Below, piece after piece: positions 49,629 to 62,221 of a stretch of DNA of 64,000 bases. Position 1 is the stretch's first letter. The number at the start of each line of letters is the position of its first letter. The DNA comes from an uncultured candidate division Zixibacteria bacterium. GTDB taxonomy: Bacteria; Zixibacteria; MSB-5A5; GN15; FEB-12. Under the pieces are notes generated by a model, which was not told the DNA's origin, did not search any database, and saw only the letters and a program-made list of their open reading frames with translations. The stretch covers positions 64,001 to 128,000 of the forward strand of contig CAWDXE010000006.1 of assembly GCA_963806185.1 (NCBI GenBank). Direction: 5' to 3'. The translations under genes were made by a program, and so were the position numbers.

Positions 49629-52272
49629 TTACTTAACGAGCATCATCTTCTTCACGTTGGAGAACTCGCCGGACGTGAGCTTATAGAAGTACACGCCGCT
49701 AGCTACTGAGCTGGCATCCCACTCAACTGAGAAGAAGCCCGCTTCTTGAGCCGTACCGTTGAAGGTGGTGACAGACTGCCCCTGGATGTTGTAAATCGTC
49801 AGGGAGTAGTCGCCGGCCTTCGGCAGAGCGAACTCAATTGTCGTGCTCGGGTTGAACGGGTTCGGATAGTTCTGCGACAGCGCGTACGCGCGCGGAACCA
49901 GTTTCGCCGCAACCGGCTGGCCGAGAACGGTCGCCATTTCGATGGAGACCATTTCGCCGGACACTTCAAGGAAGTTACCGGTGAAGCCAGTCATGCTGCC
50001 GTGTTCGAAATCGGGATGGATGATGATCCGAGTGATATTGGCACTCTGATCATACTCATAGCCCATCACCGCACTAGTCAGATTCTTAGGCGTCTGGTTG
50101 CCGGCAACCACGACAGCCACGGCACCCATCTCGGCATCAACCGAGTAGACACCACCGTCGTTGCTCCAGATAGCGTTGGCTACGCTGACCTTATCGTACG
50201 GAGCGGCATCGCCCACGACGACACGGATCAAGTAGACCAGGTCGGCCACTGAAAGCGGGATACCGTCAGCATTGACGTCGGAAGCTGCAATCGCACCCTG
50301 CGTCGCATAAGTCGGCGGGATGCAAAGCGGGCAATCCGGCGGGAACGCGGCCAGACCCTTGATGAAGTACTGGGTGAACATAACGGCGTCAGCGATTTCG
50401 TAGCCCAGGCCGTTCAAGGTTGATATCACCACGAGCGTCGATCGAGTCGGCGCAGATGACGTCGACACCACCGTTGAGGAAGTCGATCCAAGCGAACCGG
50501 TTTACCCTTCGCCGGATACATCACACTCAGGCGATGTCGGACCGGTGTAAGACGGCATCGGAGCGCTGAAATCAGTGATATCGACGTAGGTGTCGCCACC
50601 GGCGTCGCCGTAGTAGTCAAACACATTCTTCGCGAGGAAGAGAGTGTCACCACCTACGACTCGAAAGCGTATTATCTCCGCAGTCCATCCAGAAGAACTT
50701 CACGGGCAGCAGCTGGCATTCATACGTCCGATCGTTCGAAACGAGGAACTTAAGAACGGCCAGTTGGAAGGGTCAACAAGCGGATCGCCGACCATATAGC
50801 AATCAGGATGATTCGCACCGTTGTTTGTTTCAGCCATAGCGACGATGCGAACAAGACCGCTCGGGCAGCCATTGCCGCAATTGCCGTTCGGACCAAAGCG
50901 ATACGTGAAATATTCCCAGCCGCAATCCTTGATGAACTGACCCTCTTTGACCTCGGTCAAACTCAACCCAGTCGCATCATAGGCGATGAGGAAGTCGAAA
51001 CCGCCAATCGGGTAGTTCTCGTACGTCGTGGCCAGCAGTGGTTATGTCAATGGTTGTAAATTGACCCTGGAAGACACCCTTACCGTCCGGTCCATGCTGT
51101 TTCTGTATGGTGATCTGGAACGGTACCACCTTTACATTGAAGCAGCAAGTATCCGAGTTCGAAGGATTGTACGTCGGACAAATCGACGTACCGTCCGACA
51201 CCTTCACACAGATCTGGAACGTGCCGGTATAAGCGCAATCTTCACGGTCGCCCAAGTGACTTCACCGGTAACGGGATTGACATTCACCGTACCCGGAGCC
51301 GTTGTGCTCACGAGACTGTAGATCAACTGGCCGAGCGGACCGTCGTCAGTAGCACGATACGGTATCTTGAGCATGTCACCCCAGCCGAATCGTCTTGGCT
51401 GGATCCACCGTCGGGCACGCTAACACCGGTGCGTTGTTCGTCACATTGATGTTGAACGTTACGGTGTCTTTTGCTCCGCAGGCGTCGGCGGCCACGATCT
51501 TAACCGGGTTGACACATACGTCTGCGATCGTCGTAACCCACGAAATGTTGCCATTCGTGGCGTTGACAGTCAAAGCAGTCGGGCCACTCAGCTTGCTGTA
51601 GCTGATGGTCTCGCAGCCATTGAGGGTATCGGGATCGGTAGCATGCGCATTCCCGGTGTAGACAAGCCCAAAATGGAGCGTGGCATCGGGTATGGAAGCC
51701 AGAATCGGCGCATTGTTTGTTACCGTCACGGTACCTGTTGTCACCGCCACCGGCAGAATGCTGGCATTGGCGGCGTTGACAAACTGAGTGGTAATCGGTC
51801 CAAGCGGGCACCCGCAAGCCGTCGAATATTCGAACGTCCCGCCGGCTAACGCCACCGAGCCACCACAGTTATTGCTGGTTTTGAACTTGATCTGGCCAAC
51901 TACCGTGGACCCAATTTTCAGGGACGAATCGGTAGACTGTAGCCGCATAGCAGCAATTCGGATCGTATCCGGGGAGACATGGTTGACACGTGAATAATCG
52001 ATCACGCGATCATCCAAAGCCGTAAACCCCGGCGCCCACTGGAAGGTTAGGGAATCAAAGAACGCGCCGCCGGCCCCGGTTACTTCCAGCACTATTTCCA
52101 CAGCGCTGACCGAGTCTGCCGAGACCACCGCTGTCACATCGAGAAGACCCCGATCACAGCGTAGCGAATTCTTCGACTGGACCGTCACCTGATTAGCGAA
52201 CGATACCGATACCGAAAAAACCACTATAAAGGAGATCAGCAGCAAAGAATATAAGGTTCTTTTTTGCATCAT
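49629..52272 (-). CDS. Secreted cohesin / Ig / cohesin / dockerin / T9SS-type CTD protein, split by several apparent frameshifts (~50420-51380)
   Basis: Fragments 51376-52272, 50977-51255, 50700-50966 and 49629-50471 are colinear with the C-terminal module of the giant gene (CGWEYFTYRFG..GNCG.GCPSGL.RI..AETNNGA; YEIAD.VMFTQYFIKGL; SDVNADGIPL; YALSQNYPNPFNP). Confidence 0.8.
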
Positions 52273-53352: not shown

Positions 53353-54627
53353 CTAGAACGAATAGACCAGCCCCGCAGAAACCAGATAAACCCGGTTGTC
53401 CTGTCCGCGATCAGCGTACCAGTCCCATTCGGCCGATGTCAGCATGTCAAAGGACAACCGCCGCCCGATCTCCAGATCGCCTATCGCCGAAAACCGCAGG
53501 ACCGTATAATCGGCCTGAAATTCGTCTTCTGTTTTGACATTGCGCCTCGCCCAGACAGCCTCAATTGATCCAAAAAGCCCGGCTGCCTGCTGGTAGTCGA
53601 GCTTCGCCTTCCCTCCCAGTTCGAGGTAGTCCCCGGCCGCCAATTGCTCGGTCCCCTTTTCGTCCAGCCAGTCTATTGCCGGCCCGACGCCCAACTCCAA
53701 ACCGTCCCAAATCGGCCCCACCAGAGTGGCTGATTGCAGTCGCGTATAGTCGCTGCTGAAGGTCTCAGAGTCTCCAAAATTGGCCAACTCCAACTGGAGC
53801 TCCTCAGTCGTCTCCAGCCGGCCGCTCCAGACATGACGACACCGCGAGTCAAGATCGAAGCGCGTGTAGTCACCCCGCCCCTCAATCTCCTGTAGATTCC
53901 GCCGCTCCAGCCGGGCTGATACGTCGAGGTCGGTCTCGCCAAGCTCGCCCAGATAGGTAGTGGAGAGGCCGTAGCTGTCATAATTCAGGTCCGACGAATC
54001 GGCGACGCTTCGGTGGAGGAAGAATAGCTCACTACTGAGGATCGAGAGGCCTGCAAACGTTTGCATAACTCCCAGCGACCCGCCCCACCTATGGTAGCTG
54101 TAGACGTAGTCCGAAGACTGGTCGAACGACACGAAATCCGTCCTGAGCTGCCCGGTCAGCGAGAAGCTGCCCGACACGGGGTAGCCCAGTTTGACTCGCG
54201 AATCCCCGAGGAAATACTCATCTCCCGGCTTGGTCGAGTCGCGATAACGTATCTGCCTCGAGAGATCGGTAGTCCAACTCAGTTTGGCCCTCCGCCAGGA
54301 CGGCCGAATTTCCGATCGAAATTTTACACGCAATAGCTCGGGAGTCTGCTCCAGCGAGCCGCGAAGGTCATACCGGCCGGGCCGGTCTCTCCACCGTGCT
54401 TCGAGCATCGCCCTGAAATCATCCAGATAGGTTGTCTTGATGGTGGTGGCGACGGCCAGTGAATCGGCCGTAGAGCTGGTTAGCGAATCGTGGAAGAAAT
54501 CCTGCGAAAAGAAATCGTACCCCATCCCGGCACGAAAACGCCAACCGGAGGTTTGACCGTACAGATCGCTACCTCCGGCGGCAACTAGCGTCACAAGGAA
54601 GAAGAACAGACGGAAAAATCGAAACAA
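53353..54627 (-). CDS. Putative outer-membrane beta-barrel protein
   Basis: Signal peptide, alternating amphipathic strands, C-terminal AGLVYSF beta-signal. Confidence 0.7.
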   Translation of the reverse strand: MFRFFRLFFFLVTLVAAGGSDLYGQTSGWRFRAGMGYDFFSQDFFHDSLTSSTADSLAVATTIKTTYLDDFRAMLEARWRDRPGRYDLRGSLEQTPELLRVKFRSEIRPSWRRAKLSWTTDLSRQIRYRDSTKPGDEYFLGDSRVKLGYPVSGSFSLTGQLRTDFVSFDQSSDYVYSYHRWGGSLGVMQTFAGLSILSSELFFLHRSVADSSDLNYDSYGLSTTYLGELGETDLDVSARLERRNLQEIEGRGDYTRFDLDSRCRHVWSGRLETTEELQLELANFGDSETFSSDYTRLQSATLVGPIWDGLELGVGPAIDWLDEKGTEQLAAGDYLELGGKAKLDYQQAAGLFGSIEAVWARRNVKTEDEFQADYTVLRFSAIGDLEIGRRLSFDMLTSAEWDWYADRGQDNRVYLVSAGLVYSF

Positions 54628-54654
54628 TCGGCGATGGCCCCACTCAGCGATTGA

Positions 54655-55701
54655 TTAATGCGTGGCGCCAATATAATCGTCCACTTTGTCAATCGCAAGG
54701 TGAGCCGCTTGGAGCGAGGCTTCCGCCCCGGAGAGGTTGCCTGCCTCTATCTCCATTTTTGCCTTAGCCAACAACTCTCTGGCCTGGTCCAAAAGGGCCC
54801 GGGCTTGAGTGCCCGTATCGCCGGTAAGGCTTGTCACCGGCTCCGCCAGTCGATCCACGTCGCCCTTCAGCGCCTCGTAACGCTGACTGACCCGTGAAAG
54901 ATCACTGGCAGCCGTCCCTCCGCATTCGCGAATCGCCTTTTGGGCCAGGTCCCGTGCCGTTTGGAGTGCCTTGAGGGCCTGCGCCGCCTTACCGGCGGTG
55001 TTGAGCTCCTGAGCCAATTGAAGGTTCTTTTCAGCTTGCTCAGCAGCCGTCTTTCCAGCCTCGGAACTGCAGGCCTTGGCGGCGTCAGTCCCCCTGGCTA
55101 CCAGGTCGATCACTGTCGCCTCGCGGCGAATATACTGTTCCCGAATACGGTCAGCCCCCCTGGCCGCATCGAGAATGGTCCCTGCCGTTCGCTCCACCTG
55201 GTCGGCCAGCTTTATGGCCGGTCGATATTTCTCGCTTCGATAAAACTCCCACGCCCGATCCAGCGAATTGCGAGCGACCTGATACAGACTCTGCAGACGC
55301 GGTAGCTCTGCGTCCGCTATAGCCTGCTGAGCCAACTCCAATTGCTCCTCAGCTCGTTCCAGTCGCCGCTGCACTGTCCCTTCCTGATTCTCGCTTTGCT
55401 TGCTATTCGTCAGGGCGGTTCTAAGCAGTTTCCGAGCTTCGAGTGAGAGCTTCTTGGCAACGCCATACGCGCCCCGGTTAAAGGCCTCCCAGGCCTTGGC
55501 CTGAAGGTCGGTGGAACGGGCCAGAACGTCGAGCGCTATCGGATCGTTGGCGTCCCGAATAATCGGCGTGGCATAGTCGATCAACTGATCTGTCTGCTCC
55601 AGAATCACCCGGGCACCATTATCGCCGCTTTGCGCAAATGATGCTCCCGTCATCAATAGGAGCACGGATCCAAGAAGCACAAAAAATGTCGGTCGCCACA
55701 T
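54655..55701 (-). CDS. Secreted alpha-helical repeat protein
   Basis: Signal peptide ..ASFA; four ~75-80 aa repeats of L..A......A......G....A......AR. Confidence 0.7.
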   Translation of the reverse strand: MWRPTFFVLLGSVLLLMTGASFAQSGDNGARVILEQTDQLIDYATPIIRDANDPIALDVLARSTDLQAKAWEAFNRGAYGVAKKLSLEARKLLRTALTNSKQSENQEGTVQRRLERAEEQLELAQQAIADAELPRLQSLYQVARNSLDRAWEFYRSEKYRPAIKLADQVERTAGTILDAARGADRIREQYIRREATVIDLVARGTDAAKACSSEAGKTAAEQAEKNLQLAQELNTAGKAAQALKALQTARDLAQKAIRECGGTAASDLSRVSQRYEALKGDVDRLAEPVTSLTGDTGTQARALLDQARELLAKAKMEIEAGNLSGAEASLQAAHLAIDKVDDYIGATH

Positions 55702-55732
55702 ATTCACAGCACAATCCTCTTACGGAGAGTAT

Positions 55733-55838
55733 AACAAGCCCTGTGCCGATCAGATCGGCAACAATAACCTATTATCAAACAATATCTTAAACCAGAAAAA
55801 CAGATCAAGCACAAGTGCGGCCTGTACCGGCGGGTACA
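55733..55838 (-). promoter_or_regulatory. Putative sigma-54 promoter with upstream activator site
   Basis: Minus strand CGGCAC-AGGGC-TTGT (55748-55733; the -12 GC reads GT); TGT-N10-ACA palindrome TGTACCGGCGGGTACA (55823-55838); AT-rich spacer between them. Confidence 0.55.
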
Positions 55839-55872
55839 ACCTCACCGTCCCTTGCCGCACAACGGCCACGAC

Positions 55873-57201
55873 TTACCCCTTGATATCGTGAACTTTCATC
55901 CGGCTGTAGAGCCGGCGCCGGGTGATCCGCAGCAGCTTGGCCGCCTCCGTCTTGTTGCCACCAGCCCGCTCCAATGCTCCCAGAATCAACTGCTTTTCGG
56001 TCGCTTCCAGCCCCCTTTCACCCATGGGAGCATCATCAAGATCAAGCGGAGCATCATCGATTTCAAGTGAAAAGTCCTCGACCGACAGCGGCTCTCCGCC
56101 GGACAAAATGGCCGCCCGCTCCAGGACGTTTCGGAGTTCGCGGATATTCCCCGGCCAGTCGTATGCTGTCAATAGCTCGGTCACCGGCTCAGCCAGTTGC
56201 CAATGGGCAAATCCCTGACGCTGCAACATGTGCTCTGCCAACGCCACTACGTCGTTTACCCGCTCCGCCAGAGTCGGAATAGCAATAGGAAACACATTCA
56301 GTCGGAAATACAAATCCTCCCGAAATCCCCCGCGCTTGATCTCGTCCTTAAGATTCCGATTGGTCGCCGAAATGATGCGTACGTCTATGTCGACACTGTC
56401 AATCCCGCCCACCCGGACCAATTGCCGCTCCTCGATCACCCGAAGCAACTTCGATTGCATTCCGGGCGACATCTCGCCGATTTCGTCCAGGAATATCGTT
56501 CCCTTCTCCGCCAGCTCGAACCGCCCCCGTTTGCGCGCCTGCGCCCCGGTAAACGCTCCCTTTTCATGGCCGAAAAGTTCCGATTCCAATAGCGTCTCGG
56601 TGAGGGCCGCGCAATTGATCGCAATGAAGGCATTCTCCTTACGCCGGGAATGCTGATGAATCATCCGCGCCACCAGTTCCTTCCCGGTCCCCGACTTCCC
56701 GGTGATCAGCACCGAGGCATCCGTCGGCGCAACCTGATGAATCAGCTTCTTCACCTTCTCCGCGGCCGCCGACCGGCCGACAAACTCAGAGAGCAGCGAG
56801 GCCTCAGCCTGCTTTTCCAGATGCTCGACCATCGCCGCCTGGCGCTGTTGGGAGATCAGCCGATTGACCAGCAGGGCGAGTTCTTCGAGCGAAAACGGTT
56901 TGATCAGGTAGTCGGCCGCCCCCCGTTTCATCGCCTTTACCGCGCTTTCCACCGTCCCGTAAGCGGTCATGATGATCACCTCGGTGCCGGTTCGTTCGAG
57001 CGCCTTGTCGAGTATCGTCATGCCGGAGACATTCGGCATGGAAAGGTCGGTCACCACCACATCATATGAGTGCGTCTCGAGCATCTTCATGGCCACCTGC
57101 GGATCGGTGGCCGTGCTCACCCGATGCCCGGCATCTTCCAGCTCGCCGCACACGAGGGCGGTCATTTTCGGTTCATCGTCGACTACCAGTATCCGCGCCA
57201 T
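55873..57201 (-). CDS. Sigma-54-dependent response regulator (NtrC/ZraR family)
   Basis: Receiver domain; GKSGTGKE, ESELFGHEKGAFTGA, FLDEIGE and WPGNIREL motifs; Fis-type HTH. Confidence 0.95.
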   Translation of the reverse strand: MARILVVDDEPKMTALVCGELEDAGHRVSTATDPQVAMKMLETHSYDVVVTDLSMPNVSGMTILDKALERTGTEVIIMTAYGTVESAVKAMKRGAADYLIKPFSLEELALLVNRLISQQRQAAMVEHLEKQAEASLLSEFVGRSAAAEKVKKLIHQVAPTDASVLITGKSGTGKELVARMIHQHSRRKENAFIAINCAALTETLLESELFGHEKGAFTGAQARKRGRFELAEKGTIFLDEIGEMSPGMQSKLLRVIEERQLVRVGGIDSVDIDVRIISATNRNLKDEIKRGGFREDLYFRLNVFPIAIPTLAERVNDVVALAEHMLQRQGFAHWQLAEPVTELLTAYDWPGNIRELRNVLERAAILSGGEPLSVEDFSLEIDDAPLDLDDAPMGERGLEATEKQLILGALERAGGNKTEAAKLLRITRRRLYSRMKVHDIKG

Positions 57202-57203
57202 AG

Positions 57204-58533
57204 TCAGTGCATCGCTTTCTTGGGCAAATGGATGATCATGCGAGTTGACGAACCGGGACGACTGTCGACCGTCAGCTTGCCTCGCATTTCTTCAATGAGT
57301 CGTTTACTTAAGTACAGGCCCAGCCCGGAACCGGTTTGCTTGGTCGTATAGAACGGGGCAAAGATCCGCTTGGCTTCCTTCGCCGTCATGCCCGGCCCGT
57401 AGTCGATCACTACTATTTGTACTTCGTGCTGACGGTCGGTCACGTCCAGGCCCACTTTGATCGGCCGCTCCGCCGCCTGGCAAGCTTCCGCTCCGTTTAC
57501 CAGTAAATTCAATATAACCTGCCGCAACGCCCGGGGAAATCCCTCCATTGACAGCGCCGGTACCGGTGCTTCCTCCACCCACTGCGCCTGCTGGCCGGCG
57601 TACCGGGTGAGGAAGTGTTTCCGAATGGTGCTCACCATCTCCGCCAGATCATACGTTTCAGGCGTCTCGGTGGCAATCAGCGATTGCTCCGCTCGGGCAA
57701 AATTCAGATACCCGGTCACCAGCGCGTTAAGTCGGTCGGTCTCTTCAACGATATACTTCGCTTCCTCGGCCTGGTGCTTCTTGAAGAGGCGTTCGGCCGA
57801 CGCCCGGATGATGCCGAGCGGGTTCTTGACTTCATGCGCGACGACCGCCACCATCCGCCCCATGAACGAGTGCGTCTCGCCCATATACAATCGCTGTTCG
57901 ATCTGATTGAGGCGGCGCTGCAGGAGGAGGAATACCGCCCCAAGCATCAGCCCGCCCAGCATCGAGATCCCGGTCGCATACCAGAGGTTTTTTCGCAGGG
58001 CGGCCAGCGACGCGAAGTAGTCGACATTTGCTTCCACCCCCAGCACCGCCGCCACCGATCTATTCCGGTCGGTGATCGGTGCGAAGGCCGACTTCAGGAC
58101 GACCTCCCCCACCTGATACGATGGTGTGGCGATGGTCGCATGACTGGTGCCAAAGAACAGGGAGTCGATATATTTCCCGTTGAATGAGGCAAGAAAGTAC
58201 ACACTGTCGACTTCGACCTGCGTAGTGGCGAGGTAGTGAGAACCGTCGTCCAGAATGAACACCTCGGACAGCGAGTCCGACAACCGCAGCCGCTCCAGCC
58301 GACCGATGACCGAGGCGTACACCTCCAGATCATTGGCTCTGAGCTTGTCCAGCTCTTCCGTCTGGATACCGTCTGCTCCCACCTGCGCCAGCGCCGATAG
58401 ACCGCCGCGACAACTGGTTGTCGAGCATCACTTCGGTTTTCCGGTAGTAGAGCCACCAGGAGAGATTGACCAGGGCGATCAGGACGAGAGTAAAGACGGC
58501 GATGACAATCAGCCGGACGGAGGTAGTTCGCAT
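57204..58533 (-). CDS. Sensor histidine kinase (apparent frameshift near 58385-58400)
   Basis: AHEVKNPL, NLLVNG, DYGPG and FYTTK..GSGLGL motifs; the first TM helix lies in a separate ORF (58330-58533). Confidence 0.88.
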
Positions 58534-58588
58534 GCCGCAAAGAAGCGGTTCTCAGTTCGGCTTGGCAACAAGAGTTGTTGGGGGGGAT

Positions 58589-58912
58589 GTGCCGTCAGGC
58601 CCCCGTGCCTGACGGAATCCGTTGCGTCAGGTCCTGCGGCGATTCTTGTCGCCGTGTGACCTGACGCCTCACCCTACTCGCCCTCACCCCAACCCTCTCC
58701 CGGAGGGAGAGCAAGCAAGAGGGAATCTGTAGGGCAGCATCGATGCCCGCCGAGGGCGGGCAGATGCTGCCGGGGGGCCCATGAATTCCGAAAGATGGCA
58801 GCACCCGCTCGAAGACTCGCATCGGTGCTGCCCTACGTGATGGGTTCATTCCAATGGCCGGCGTACGTCTCGTGCGTCGGCGGGTGTGCCGTCAGGCCCC
58901 CGTGCCTGACGG
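58589..58912. repeat. Mosaic repeat cluster including a GTAG-type REPIN
   Basis: 58589-58740 is colinear with 36107-36265; REPIN 58729-58836 matches 43448-43558; GGCCGGCGTACGTCTCGTGCG (58855); second GTCAGGCCCCCGTGCCTGAC (58886). Confidence 0.9.
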
Positions 58913-60556
58913 TGGAGGAATGGGCAGCGTGTCGGGCCGAACTACATGCTGCCAAAGCCAAGAATCAAACCATCTCACAATGTCACTACTGAAACGATGT
59001 GGATAAATGACTAAAAACAGTGGTACCCAATGAGGATGCTTCTTCAACATTGCAGGCACAGTAATTCCACCGCATTCCTCAGCCATTTCCTGCAATTCCT
59101 GCCAGTCCATGGTGTATGGCGGTATGATGGTCGAGTTGTACCCAGTCGGTGTTCGCCACAACAGATATTGCCATGATTCATTAGGGTCGACTCGATGAAG
59201 CATAAGGTACGTGTAGAGCGGCCATTGCAGCTTCAGCTCACGTTTCCAGTTCATTCTTACGGCAAGATGCAATAGAGCTTCAGGAGTATAAGCGCTACCT
59301 TCGAAATTCTCGCTGATCTTCCCGTCAGCCAATCCGAGTTGAGAGAGCACGACAGACTCGCCGCTATAGTAAGGGGACGCCAAAGGGCATTTTGACCCCG
59401 GTTTGTTCGACGTGATTACAGCATCAAGGACACTCATAATTATTTGTTCGGGAGCTGGTGTAGAGTCTACCGTGCGAAGATACCAATAAGCCGCAACATA
59501 CGACGAGACAGCGCCCTCCCCCCATAAAGACATTTCTCTCAGATGCGAGCGAAGGAACCTTTGTATCATTCCATCAATTTCTTCACTGCAATGTTCAAGT
59601 GATCTGTTCCAGATACCGAAAGCACTCAGAACACCAACCAGGAAGGTCACGCGCAATGTATAGAATGGCTGATCGGGGAGTGCATTGCCCTCCAATAAGT
59701 GATCTCTCTTTCCAATCTCTTCGATTAGATTTTCAAAAGACTCAAGTACATACTGCTCTACTAATCGAAATGTGGAAGTCCAGTACTTCTGGGGGAGTTG
59801 ATGTTGCTCAATGACCGCAGATATATAGGCCAAAAAGAACACCCACACTTGTATCTTGGCACAGTGGTTGTTCTTCTCCTCGTACGAGGCTGAAGCAACA
59901 GCTGTAATTAAGGCTGAACTAGCTATGGCGCGAAAGAAACTTGCTTTGGAGGGGCTTTTTTCCCTTTCATTGAGAAAGGGCATCGAGTAACTCAACAGCC
60001 GTTCGAACTTTTCAGGGGAAGGTTCATTATTTCCCTCCTCGAGGTAGAGTTCGCCCAATATTCGGAAATCGCGCAATTCGCTCGGAAGAAGCGACCGCGA
60101 TAGCGCCAGAGTCATCGCCAAGAGTTTTCCTCGGGAAATGAGCTCAACCTGTCGCTCGGGAAAGCCCTTGTCGCGAAGACCACTATTAAAATTATTAATA
60201 GAGACTTGTATTTCTTCCTCGATGTCTGCGTTTACAACTAGGTAAGACCGATGCCAGCGAGCGCTCGCGAGACCAGGGTAGTTCACCTTCAGCATCACAA
60301 GATCCAACAGTTGTGATTCTGCTTCCCTCCAATCGTTTCTCGAAAATCGCTTGTTACTCGTGCTCTTGAGTTGGTACGCATGAATCTCGCCATCTGGGCT
60401 GACGCTAATCACGTCCTTGCCCTCCTCGAGGCCGGTATGCCGCGTGGAGTGAACAATTTCGTGTCCCTCGTTGATGAGCATGGCGCAGAAGGGCAACTGG
60501 TAACTTCGCTCTGTCGCACTATCCAACCAATTTTCGAGAAGCCTCTCTATCATCAA
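58892..60556 (-). CDS. Hypothetical protein with N-terminal PD-(D/E)xK (restriction-endonuclease-like) domain and helical C-terminus
   Basis: E..Y..PF...L...G...H...EEGKDVI..DG..HAYQLK motif; clearly lower GC than neighbours. Confidence 0.65.
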   Translation of the reverse strand: MMIERLLENWLDSATERSYQLPFCAMLINEGHEIVHSTRHTGLEEGKDVISVSPDGEIHAYQLKSTSNKRFSRNDWREAESQLLDLVMLKVNYPGLASARWHRSYLVVNADIEEEIQVSINNFNSGLRDKGFPERQVELISRGKLLAMTLALSRSLLPSELRDFRILGELYLEEGNNEPSPEKFERLLSYSMPFLNEREKSPSKASFFRAIASSALITAVASASYEEKNNHCAKIQVWVFFLAYISAVIEQHQLPQKYWTSTFRLVEQYVLESFENLIEEIGKRDHLLEGNALPDQPFYTLRVTFLVGVLSAFGIWNRSLEHCSEEIDGMIQRFLRSHLREMSLWGEGAVSSYVAAYWYLRTVDSTPAPEQIIMSVLDAVITSNKPGSKCPLASPYYSGESVVLSQLGLADGKISENFEGSAYTPEALLHLAVRMNWKRELKLQWPLYTYLMLHRVDPNESWQYLLWRTPTGYNSTIIPPYTMDWQELQEMAEECGGITVPAMLKKHPHWVPLFLVIYPHRFSSDIVRWFDSWLWQHVVRPDTLPIPPPSGTGA

Positions 60557-61113
60557 AGTCCCTTCGTTTTTTGGCTATAAGTGCCTCGAATTGCTTCTTA
60601 ATCTCCGGATCACTTTCAGACTCCACCATAATCTGCCTAAATCGTTCAGCCATTTGTGGCGCTGCTACTATTGTCGGCAGCTTGATTTTCCCGCTGCGAT
60701 CGAAGTCCATTTCGACATTCTCTAGCATATCGAGGAAATCGCGAGGTCCAAAACTCTCCCGACGAAATTGAAGGTCCTGCCCTTCTCATCGAGAAACTGC
60801 GAAATAGAAGAGAAGAAAGTGCGCTGCTGTTGTTCCGCTACCTGTTTCGCAATACTGTCGACAAGCTCCATCAACTTGGGTTGACCTCCTGCAATCAACT
60901 CGGACGGAGCGAAGGAGATTTGTCCGGACAATTTCATTAATGTGGGCTTTCATCGACTGCGCCGTCTGCCCGGATGACGCGCATCTTGTTCGCTTCAAAT
61001 GCCTTCGATTCAGAGATGCCCAAAACTGATATGAATGTTCTCGCCCGCGTATAGATGAGCTTGTCGATGGAGCGGAGGACGACTTCCTTTGACTTGGGGT
61101 AGTCTGGCAACAC
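60519..61113 (-). CDS. Hypothetical ~195 aa protein (two apparent frameshifts) overlapping the nuclease gene
   Basis: Manual join: GTG at 61113 MLPDYPKSKEVV..RADGAVDES / 60722-60937 KLSGQISF..LVDSIAKQVAEQQQRTFFSSI / 60519-60728 MLENVEMDFD..PTIVAAP..REASRKLVG. Confidence 0.6.
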
Positions 61114-61122
61114 GGCTTTACC

Positions 61123-61956
61123 CTACATCCTCTCCACGCACCCCGCGATCAGGTCACGAATTTCGGTTCGGTGCGCGAGGCTGTCCCGATCACATCCTGC
61201 AACGAGCACGGATGCATGTTGTCGGCCAGCCCCATATCGGTAATAATCGAGAACGCCAGATATCTTGCTCCTCTGATGATGCGCCGCGATCACCTCCGGC
61301 ACCGTCGACATCCCGACCGCGTCGCCGCCGATCGTCCGGAAAAACCGGTACTCCGCCGCCGTCTCCAGCGTCGGGCCGGTCAGCCCCACATACACGCCGG
61401 TCTGCAAGCGGCAAGTTTCTGCTCCAGCGCCACCTGCTTGGCGATCTCCTGATACTTGTGGTTGTAGACCTCGTACATGTCGGGGAAACGGTCGCCCCAC
61501 TTGTCGTCGTTCGGGCCGATCAGCGGATTGCCGGGAAAGAAATTGATGTGGTCCTTGATCAGCATGACGTCGCCCGCCTTGAAATTCGGGTTCATCCCGC
61601 CGGCGGCGTTGGACACAATCAGCGTCTCCATGCCGAGCATCTTCATCACCCGCACCGGAAACGCGATCTGCTGGAACGAATACCCCTCATAATAGTGGAA
61701 CCGCCCCTGCATGCAGACCACCGGTTTCCCCTTCAGGTGGCCGAACAAGAGCCGTCCGGCGTGCGACTCGACTGTCGACACCGGGAAATGCGGAATCTTG
61801 TCGTACGACACCGTGCCGGTCATCTGGATACCGTCGACCAGCGACCCGAGCCCGGTGCCGAGGATGATGCCGATCTGCGGTTTGAGTTTGATCTGCGATT
61901 GAATGTACGCTGGTGGCTTCGCCAAGCTGTTTGTGAATTTCTGCCCACGTCTGCAT
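61123..61956 (-). CDS. punA: Purine-nucleoside phosphorylase (family 2), several apparent frameshifts
   Basis: [41 protein letters not shown] and [12 protein letters not shown] spread over overlapping frames. Confidence 0.88.
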
Positions 61957-62050
61957 GTCTGTCTCCATTTGGGTATGTGTAATTATGTTTGTCGTTTACT
62001 CCTACGCTCACCAGTAAATGGTGGGGCACGGGAACTATGCGCCTCACCGG

Positions 62051-62221
62051 CCCTCACCCCAACCCTCTCCCAGAGGGGAGGGGGAGGAAGATGCGCTCGT
62101 GGCGCACGGGACGTACGCCACGCACGGAATGCACTCCGCCCACCAATCATGTTCGGCGTTTGCCGTGGCCGGCGTACGTCTCGTGCGCCGGCTTGTAAGT
62201 CAGGCTCCCTGCGAGCCTGAC
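62051..62221. repeat. Repeat cluster
   Basis: CCCTCACCCCAACCCTCTCCC (62051), GTGGCCGGCGTACGTCTCGTGCGCCGGC (62165-62192), GTCAGGCTC..GAGCCTGAC (62199-62221). Confidence 0.85.

Follow-up and report, generated by a model that had tools for sequence, protein, structure and literature searches.

In a 64,000-nucleotide stretch of DNA from an uncultured candidate division Zixibacteria bacterium (contig CAWDXE010000006.1, positions 64,001 to 128,000; hereafter the window), we found that two overlapping minus-strand genes at 58892..61113 form a conserved cassette that is quite probably an anti-phage defence system. The large gene (58892..60553) encodes a 553-amino-acid protein with a predicted PD-(D/E)xK nuclease domain (residues ~1-155; 60089..60553) and a mostly helical body of ~390 amino acids. 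The small gene (60519..61113), which specifies ~197 amino acids (MLPD...RKLVG) in intact homologues, encodes a protein predicted to adopt a truncated HK97 capsid fold. The pair is real and conserved, and a capsid-like fold and a role in defence are likely. An earlier note on the window had interpreted the genes as a capsid-like sensor or decoy coupled to a defence nuclease, and this interpretation is partly supported.

A full small gene was located directly upstream of the large gene at 42 of the 49 genome loci that were found through the nuclease; four loci carried a partial small gene (three of them at contig ends), and three had no upstream DNA. The reverse test used a DNA motif from the N-terminal half of the small gene, which is independent of the overlap, and covered 120 metagenome stretches with 101 true homologues. 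The nuclease gene followed all 54 full-length small genes that had downstream DNA, and whole-genome profile searches added 4/4 and 4/4 small genes preceding the nuclease. The expectation of the earlier note that homologues of the two genes co-occur was thus borne out in both directions. Five loci (L065, L085, L091, L095 and L109), two of which are copies of one locus, retained 5′ remnants of the small gene and no nuclease; four of the five adjoined type I/II restriction or DISARM-like genes, as judged from translations read by eye. At the fourth of the loci with a partial small gene (L045:1006-1716), the last third of the gene was fused in frame behind an unrelated open reading frame (ORF), with an intact nuclease gene after it. 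This fusion may be a natural truncation or a misassembly.

The two genes of the window share 35 nt (60519..60553) that are coding in both frames. The same overlap was observed in 33 of the 43 genome loci listed, the other 10 having 14-32 nt where the match start differs or one of the genes is damaged, and its register was identical in 53 of 56 metagenome loci, the other three not being measurable. Conservation of RKLVG at the end of the small protein is partly forced by the other frame. Across 27 loci, the Arg and Gly codons were kept where the other frame permits alternatives, and both frames therefore seem to be selected. The distance matrices of 36 small/large pairs were correlated (Pearson 0.85, kinship not controlled), a relation between sequence distances that can be taken to show joint transfer only.

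The model of the large protein places it in the PD-(D/E)xK nuclease superfamily, and DNA cleavage is predicted. Its ORF is intact (58892-60556; 554 codons counted from TTG, 553 amino acids from the ATG at 60553) and contains the E...GKD...QLK motif described in the earlier note, here E43-x-G-K-D47-x13-Q61-L-K63. E43, Q61 and K63 were kept in 117/117 homologues and E15 and D47 in 116/117; H35 and H39 of the nuclease domain were also kept in 116-117/117, and the catalytic motif was present in 54/54 metagenome copies of the gene. In the structure model (predicted local distance difference test [pLDDT] 92.9), a restriction-endonuclease-like alpha/beta fold is followed by a protein that is helical after residue 155, in agreement with the long helical region proposed earlier. 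The helical body has the invariant residues N229, W444, W484, P518 and R520 and ends in a conserved P-H-R motif. Foldseek comparison with the PDB, in which the weight was on residues up to ~310, gave weak matches to MspJI, Lamassu LmuA, Hachiman and Cap4 (E 0.04-0.13). At E 0.001 there was no PDB match for the model of either protein, and PDB sequence searches returned nothing significant for the large or the small protein. MspJI and AspBHI were among the fold matches with alignments limited to the catalytic domain, and the fold comparison matched no SRA or other modified-base reader in the large protein. In its Atlas cluster, PF04471 was found in 12% of members. Walker A/B motifs were absent from the consensus, NCBIfam (June 2026) gave no match for the large protein or the three small-gene fragments of the window, and a search for fusions of the helical body among proteins of 946-2700 amino acids found none, which is a weak negative.

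The fold of the small protein is very probably HK97-derived, as judged from its structure model (pLDDT 88.2). The modelled chain runs from an N-terminal helix and N-arm through an E-loop hairpin, an unpaired P-domain strand, a spine helix and part of an A-domain to a long terminal helix (residues 170-196), and this family-specific helix replaces the last 60-80 residues of the HK97 fold in the model. In the best 50 rows of structural matches, ranks 1-11 and 33 rows in all were capsids or encapsulins with 137-159 residues aligned; the remaining 17 rows aligned 89 residues or fewer. The alignments stopped at residue 209 of 278 (9i8e), 198 of 266 (7bcv) and 203 of 264 (7k5w), and the model is not a complete HK97 fold, since the closing A- and P-domain strands are absent. 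The best viral Foldseek match was the T7M gp10B capsid (E 0.017), and the sole other-family clusters among the Atlas matches listed were phage capsids (0.83 and 0.82, both below the 0.9 line). Searches of Pfam, PHROGs and PDB sequences with the small protein gave no match, and PF04454, PF05065 and PF08967 were matched by 0/42 members at E 0.01. When the family profile was compared with profiles from shallow alignments of encapsulins and of capsids, no significant similarity emerged; hhalign against six encapsulins gave P 0.06 over 116 columns, in structural register. The earlier note had described a trimmed HK97 capsid or encapsulin core. The four motifs that it quoted are all present, and the predicted fold, the order of elements and the C-terminal truncation agree with this description, but no significant sequence match to capsids or encapsulins was found. 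A fusion search with the small protein among proteins of 350-2000 amino acids was negative, again weakly so. The family comprises 2,520 clusters at 50% identity, across which length and sequence are conserved. Separately, a ~367-amino-acid protein with a weak match to Phage_capsid_4 (PF25209; L184-L213, G000:C5:25381-25812) was present in 55/151 genomes of the phylum, usually once and well conserved; it is possibly a domesticated capsid, a gene transfer agent or an encapsulin-like gene.

The pair has a patchy, mobile distribution. It was present in 5/285 genomes of the phylum and 0/107 of the family, and in 1/400 and 3/300 further genomes of two other phyla, centre genomes aside. Record titles place it in at least 13 phylum-level groups, with members across phyla at 20-50% identity, and it is intact in cultured isolates. 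Cassette guanine-plus-cytosine (GC) content was below that of the flanks in 41/47 loci, by a mean of 9 points. To compare neighbourhoods, the two nearest genes on each side were searched with PADLOC models at E 1e-25, with control genes from three genomes of the window's phylum. Matches were found for 14/157 genes near the genome loci, at 9/46 loci (124 genes scanned; 33 with another NCBIfam match scored negative), and for 4/93 genes near the metagenome loci (seven raw, three being set aside as generic regulators or enzymes). Pooled, 18/250 neighbours matched versus 1/134 control genes (Fisher p 0.005; raw 21/250 versus 3/134, p 0.016). Defence genes were thus moderately enriched beside the pair relative to a narrow control, the outcome for which the earlier note had looked. 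The neighbours included SIR2-HerA, type I, IIG and III restriction, DISARM-like and PARIS/Septu-like genes, integrases and transposases; most copies, including that of the window, stand alone among housekeeping genes. On one IMG/VR viral contig (L057 1-9091), qatABCD, the pair and Dazbog dzbAB follow one another on one strand. Viral contigs yielded no locus with a single-protein query and one with an alignment query, and plasmids yielded no nuclease match and one small-protein match. The scan of neighbouring genes, made without PHROGs, identified no phage structural gene, and 50,697 records of annotated phages contained no match. A conserved neighbouring SMC (structural maintenance of chromosomes) ATPase, helicase or cyclase was not found among the 157 and 93 nearest genes.

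On the Sulfitobacter pontiacus plasmid CP144550.1 (L240:5824-8342), a distant homologue of the small gene (E 1e-26 to the profile) overlaps a caspase-like gene instead of a nuclease gene. The partner frame spans 641 codons, with a caspase-like domain at its N-terminus and a C-terminal part of ~380 amino acids. BLAST, hidden Markov model searches, hhalign and shuffled profile alignment detected no homology between this C-terminal half and the body of the nuclease, their motif order being alike by eye. This single case suggests that the effector can be exchanged. Both Sulfitobacter genes adjoin an IS3-like element, and each matches two places in the record. No further copies of the caspase-like variant were found, one candidate (L250) being a false match.

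The best explanation of the pair, though as a whole somewhat less likely than not, is that the capsid-like small protein guards the nuclease until phage head proteins engage it. Translational coupling through the overlap would provide about one small protein per nuclease, giving a 1:1 complex. The small protein would dock on the helical body, probably through its conserved C-terminal helix, and keep the nuclease off or unassembled. Because it lacks the closing strands, it would be unable to assemble a shell by itself, yet would expose an edge like that of a capsid. Late in infection, the major capsid protein, scaffold or prohead protease may bind or cut this bait, and the nuclease, once freed or clustered, would degrade DNA and end both the infection and the cell. 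We propose with similar reserve that the host-encoded half-capsid is the sensor or decoy of a widespread abortive infection family whose effector, nuclease or caspase-like, can be swapped.

Alternatively, the small protein could be a structural subunit only, forming oligomers in the manner of a capsomer fragment and bringing nuclease molecules together, and the helical body would sense a different trigger, be it DNA ends, modified DNA or another phage protein. PD-(D/E)xK effectors of the Cap4/LmuA type act as oligomers, the LmuA tetramer 9hr5 is among the Foldseek matches, the retained E-loop makes subunit contacts, and the ~390-amino-acid body has invariant residues of its own and could be the sensor. 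We nevertheless regard this arrangement as unlikely, the capsomer-closing part of the fold being absent; a pure scaffold also needs no virus-specific fold, though it might have inherited one. Retention of the N-arm, E-loop and spine helix together with loss of the closing strands is also the profile of a chain terminator. The truncated capsid might thus join phage heads, stall or misshape them and bring the nuclease to packaged DNA, and the cell may survive; satellites disturb head assembly in related ways. Such capsid poisoning is improbable: a single family with members at 20-50% identity in many phyla would hardly co-assemble with very diverse phage capsids, the intact small gene was not seen without its large partner, and coupled translation suggests a 1:1 ratio rather than the excess that a poison needs.

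It is also improbable that the pair is a selfish toxin-antitoxin or modification-dependent (type IV, Mrr-like) restriction module that senses no phage protein, with the small protein as antitoxin or chaperone and its capsid ancestry incidental. The arrangement, in which a small gene lies upstream of the nuclease gene and overlaps it, is typical of type II toxin-antitoxin pairs, the five loci with small-gene remnants and no nuclease are consistent with such a module, and the MspJI and AspBHI matches point to type IV restriction. These matches, however, concern the catalytic domain only, with no SRA or modified-base reader matched, and many such modules also defend against phage, so that this explanation overlaps with a defence role. 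A very improbable group of explanations treats the pair as an encapsulin-like compartment with nuclease cargo, the decayed remains of a prophage capsid gene or a fortuitous structural likeness. The capsid and encapsulin structural matches are what these share with the guard mechanism, but the protein lacks ~70 residues at the C-terminal end of the encapsulin fold and the three Pfam families were matched by none of the 42 members. The scanned neighbours and the 50,697 phage records likewise argue against a prophage relic, and conservation across 2,520 clusters argues against decay. Because the family is large, only two genes long and intact in cultured isolates, it is easy to test.

The small gene of the window is split into three frames by two frameshifts. 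Piece 1 (60937..61113) carries the N-terminal helix and E-loop-like beta-hairpin, piece 2 (60746..60952) the extended P-domain-like strand and spine-like helix, and piece 3 (60522..60788) the partial A-domain and C-terminal long helix, all on the minus strand. A profile of intact homologues (192-199 amino acids) matched these frames in order at positions 2-58, 55-123 and 110-198, so the protein of ~195 amino acids rejoined by hand in the earlier note is correct. In the same genome rpoB was matched in 11 pieces, gyrA in eight and punA in two, and a short-read contig from a near-identical strain (depth 2) carries an extra base relative to the assembly at 60758..60760, exactly the second break. 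The frameshifts are therefore probably assembly errors. The short-read run spans 60467-60757, with a loose end past 60757, and bears on the second frameshift only. Real decay of this copy is possible and would leave the family analysis unaffected, because that analysis rests on intact homologues. Besides punA (61261-61877), two more genes of the window, for a sensor kinase and a large secreted protein, look broken up, at 57204-58533 and 51376-52272; in such a frameshift-rich assembly, broken genes should not be taken as pseudogenes.

As the earlier note had it, both genes are co-oriented and AT-richer than their surroundings, between punA (61261-61877; TIGR01700 match) and a cluster of repetitive extragenic palindromic (REP)-like repeats (58582..58912), and no methyltransferase lies within the cassette. 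Its GC content of 0.488, below the window's 0.567 and the genome's 0.564, is not low in absolute terms, contrary to the label low-GC cassette. The cluster's repeats occur in 13-32 copies each in the genome, one copy taking in the last codons of the large gene; they are a genome-wide feature and no part of the two-gene system. REP-like palindromes of at least four families are stacked in the intergenic regions flanking the cassette and punA (58582-58912 and 62050-62192). A promoter and terminator scan of the cassette was at chance level. The cassette was absent from 19/19 punA loci of relatives (1.5 kb flanks), but so were the window's flanking genes. Elsewhere in the window (53353-57201), ORF translations indicated an ordinary two-component cluster of a sensor kinase and a sigma-54 response regulator and, after it, a helical-repeat secreted protein and a probable outer-membrane protein.

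The pair is likely an unnamed two-gene nuclease-effector defence system, with a sensor of a new type if confirmed. PADLOC-DB 2.0 gave one stray match in 45 large-protein members and five stray single matches in 42 small-protein members, in line with the earlier failure to assign a named system. Borvo and Azaca were considered and dropped for want of a PADLOC match. Titles, abstract openings and term look-ups in the literature yielded no description of the pair, and the main text of two large defence-discovery preprints does not mention capsids, HK97 or encapsulins; supplements may list the family under a neutral name. In CapRel-SJ46 and Lit, a toxic effector is held off until major capsid protein appears, and short capsid motifs are read by non-capsid domains. 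The pair as proposed would restrain its effector in the same way; it differs in having a capsid-like domain, and no homology was found.

Capsid proteins trigger nuclease-bearing defence systems (PMC12236752, PMC13581612), and CapRel-SJ46 and Lit are named as capsid-triggered (PMC13581612). By analogy, the mode of action would most resemble that of Avs8, in which HK97-fold capsid proteins activate an Mrr-type nuclease (PMC12236752), and that of the capsid-sensing STAND (signal transduction ATPases with numerous domains) systems Avs7 and Avs10 (PMC13581612). Like Avs8A, the large protein couples an Mrr-type PD-(D/E)xK nuclease at its N-terminus to a large helical part and is encoded in a two-gene operon, and as in all three systems its biology would centre on the HK97 major capsid fold, here a predicted one. 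Unlike them, it has no STAND NTPase, the large protein being of the order of 540 amino acids, and the HK97-like fold is host-encoded in the second gene rather than only a ligand. The pair is for these reasons not an Avs, and PADLOC Avs models matched 0 of 45 large-protein members. Avs8B is dispensable (Avs8 = PD-lambda-4; PMC12236752, PMC13581612), whereas the second gene here is kept almost without exception.

Lamassu LmuA, Hachiman HamA and CBASS Cap4 belong to the same nuclease superfamily (Foldseek E 0.06-0.13), and Lamassu swaps effector domains, including for a protease (10.1101/2022.05.11.491447), an exchange that apparently occurs here as well. The pair is not accompanied by an SMC ATPase, helicase, cyclase or SAVED domain, and with no linked ATPase, helicase or cyclase it is not one of these systems. 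With type IV Mrr/MspJI enzymes it shares the Mrr-like E..D..QxK catalytic domain and the lack of a methyltransferase; unlike them, it has an obligatory capsid-like partner and no matched modified-base reader. Like the small protein as predicted here, encapsulins of families 1-4 are HK97-derived, encoded by the host and linked to an enzyme gene in a conserved operon. Family 4 is truncated and two-component, with only the ~100-amino-acid A-domain kept (PMC8346489), and the small protein is also truncated in a two-component setting. What it retains is instead the N-arm, E-loop, spine helix and half of the A-domain, the C-terminal third having been lost, and its partner is a predicted nuclease in a defence context. 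Identity with encapsulin families 1-4 was rejected, given that no Pfam match was found in 42 members and that family 4 has another length and retains other parts of the fold.

In the papers cited, a capsid sensor either encloses the capsid protein in helical repeats or recognises a short motif of it. If our reading is true, a cut-down host capsid protein locked to a toxic effector represents a different sensing logic, with a bait that a phage could not avoid unless its own assembly contacts changed. Bacteria would then possess a decoy or guard system made from a hallmark fold of viruses, and HK97 domestication would have followed a third route in addition to those that led to encapsulins and to gene transfer agents. 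With the predicted structure, the record of how cells took over virus shell proteins gains a form of the HK97 fold that is cut short in a new way.
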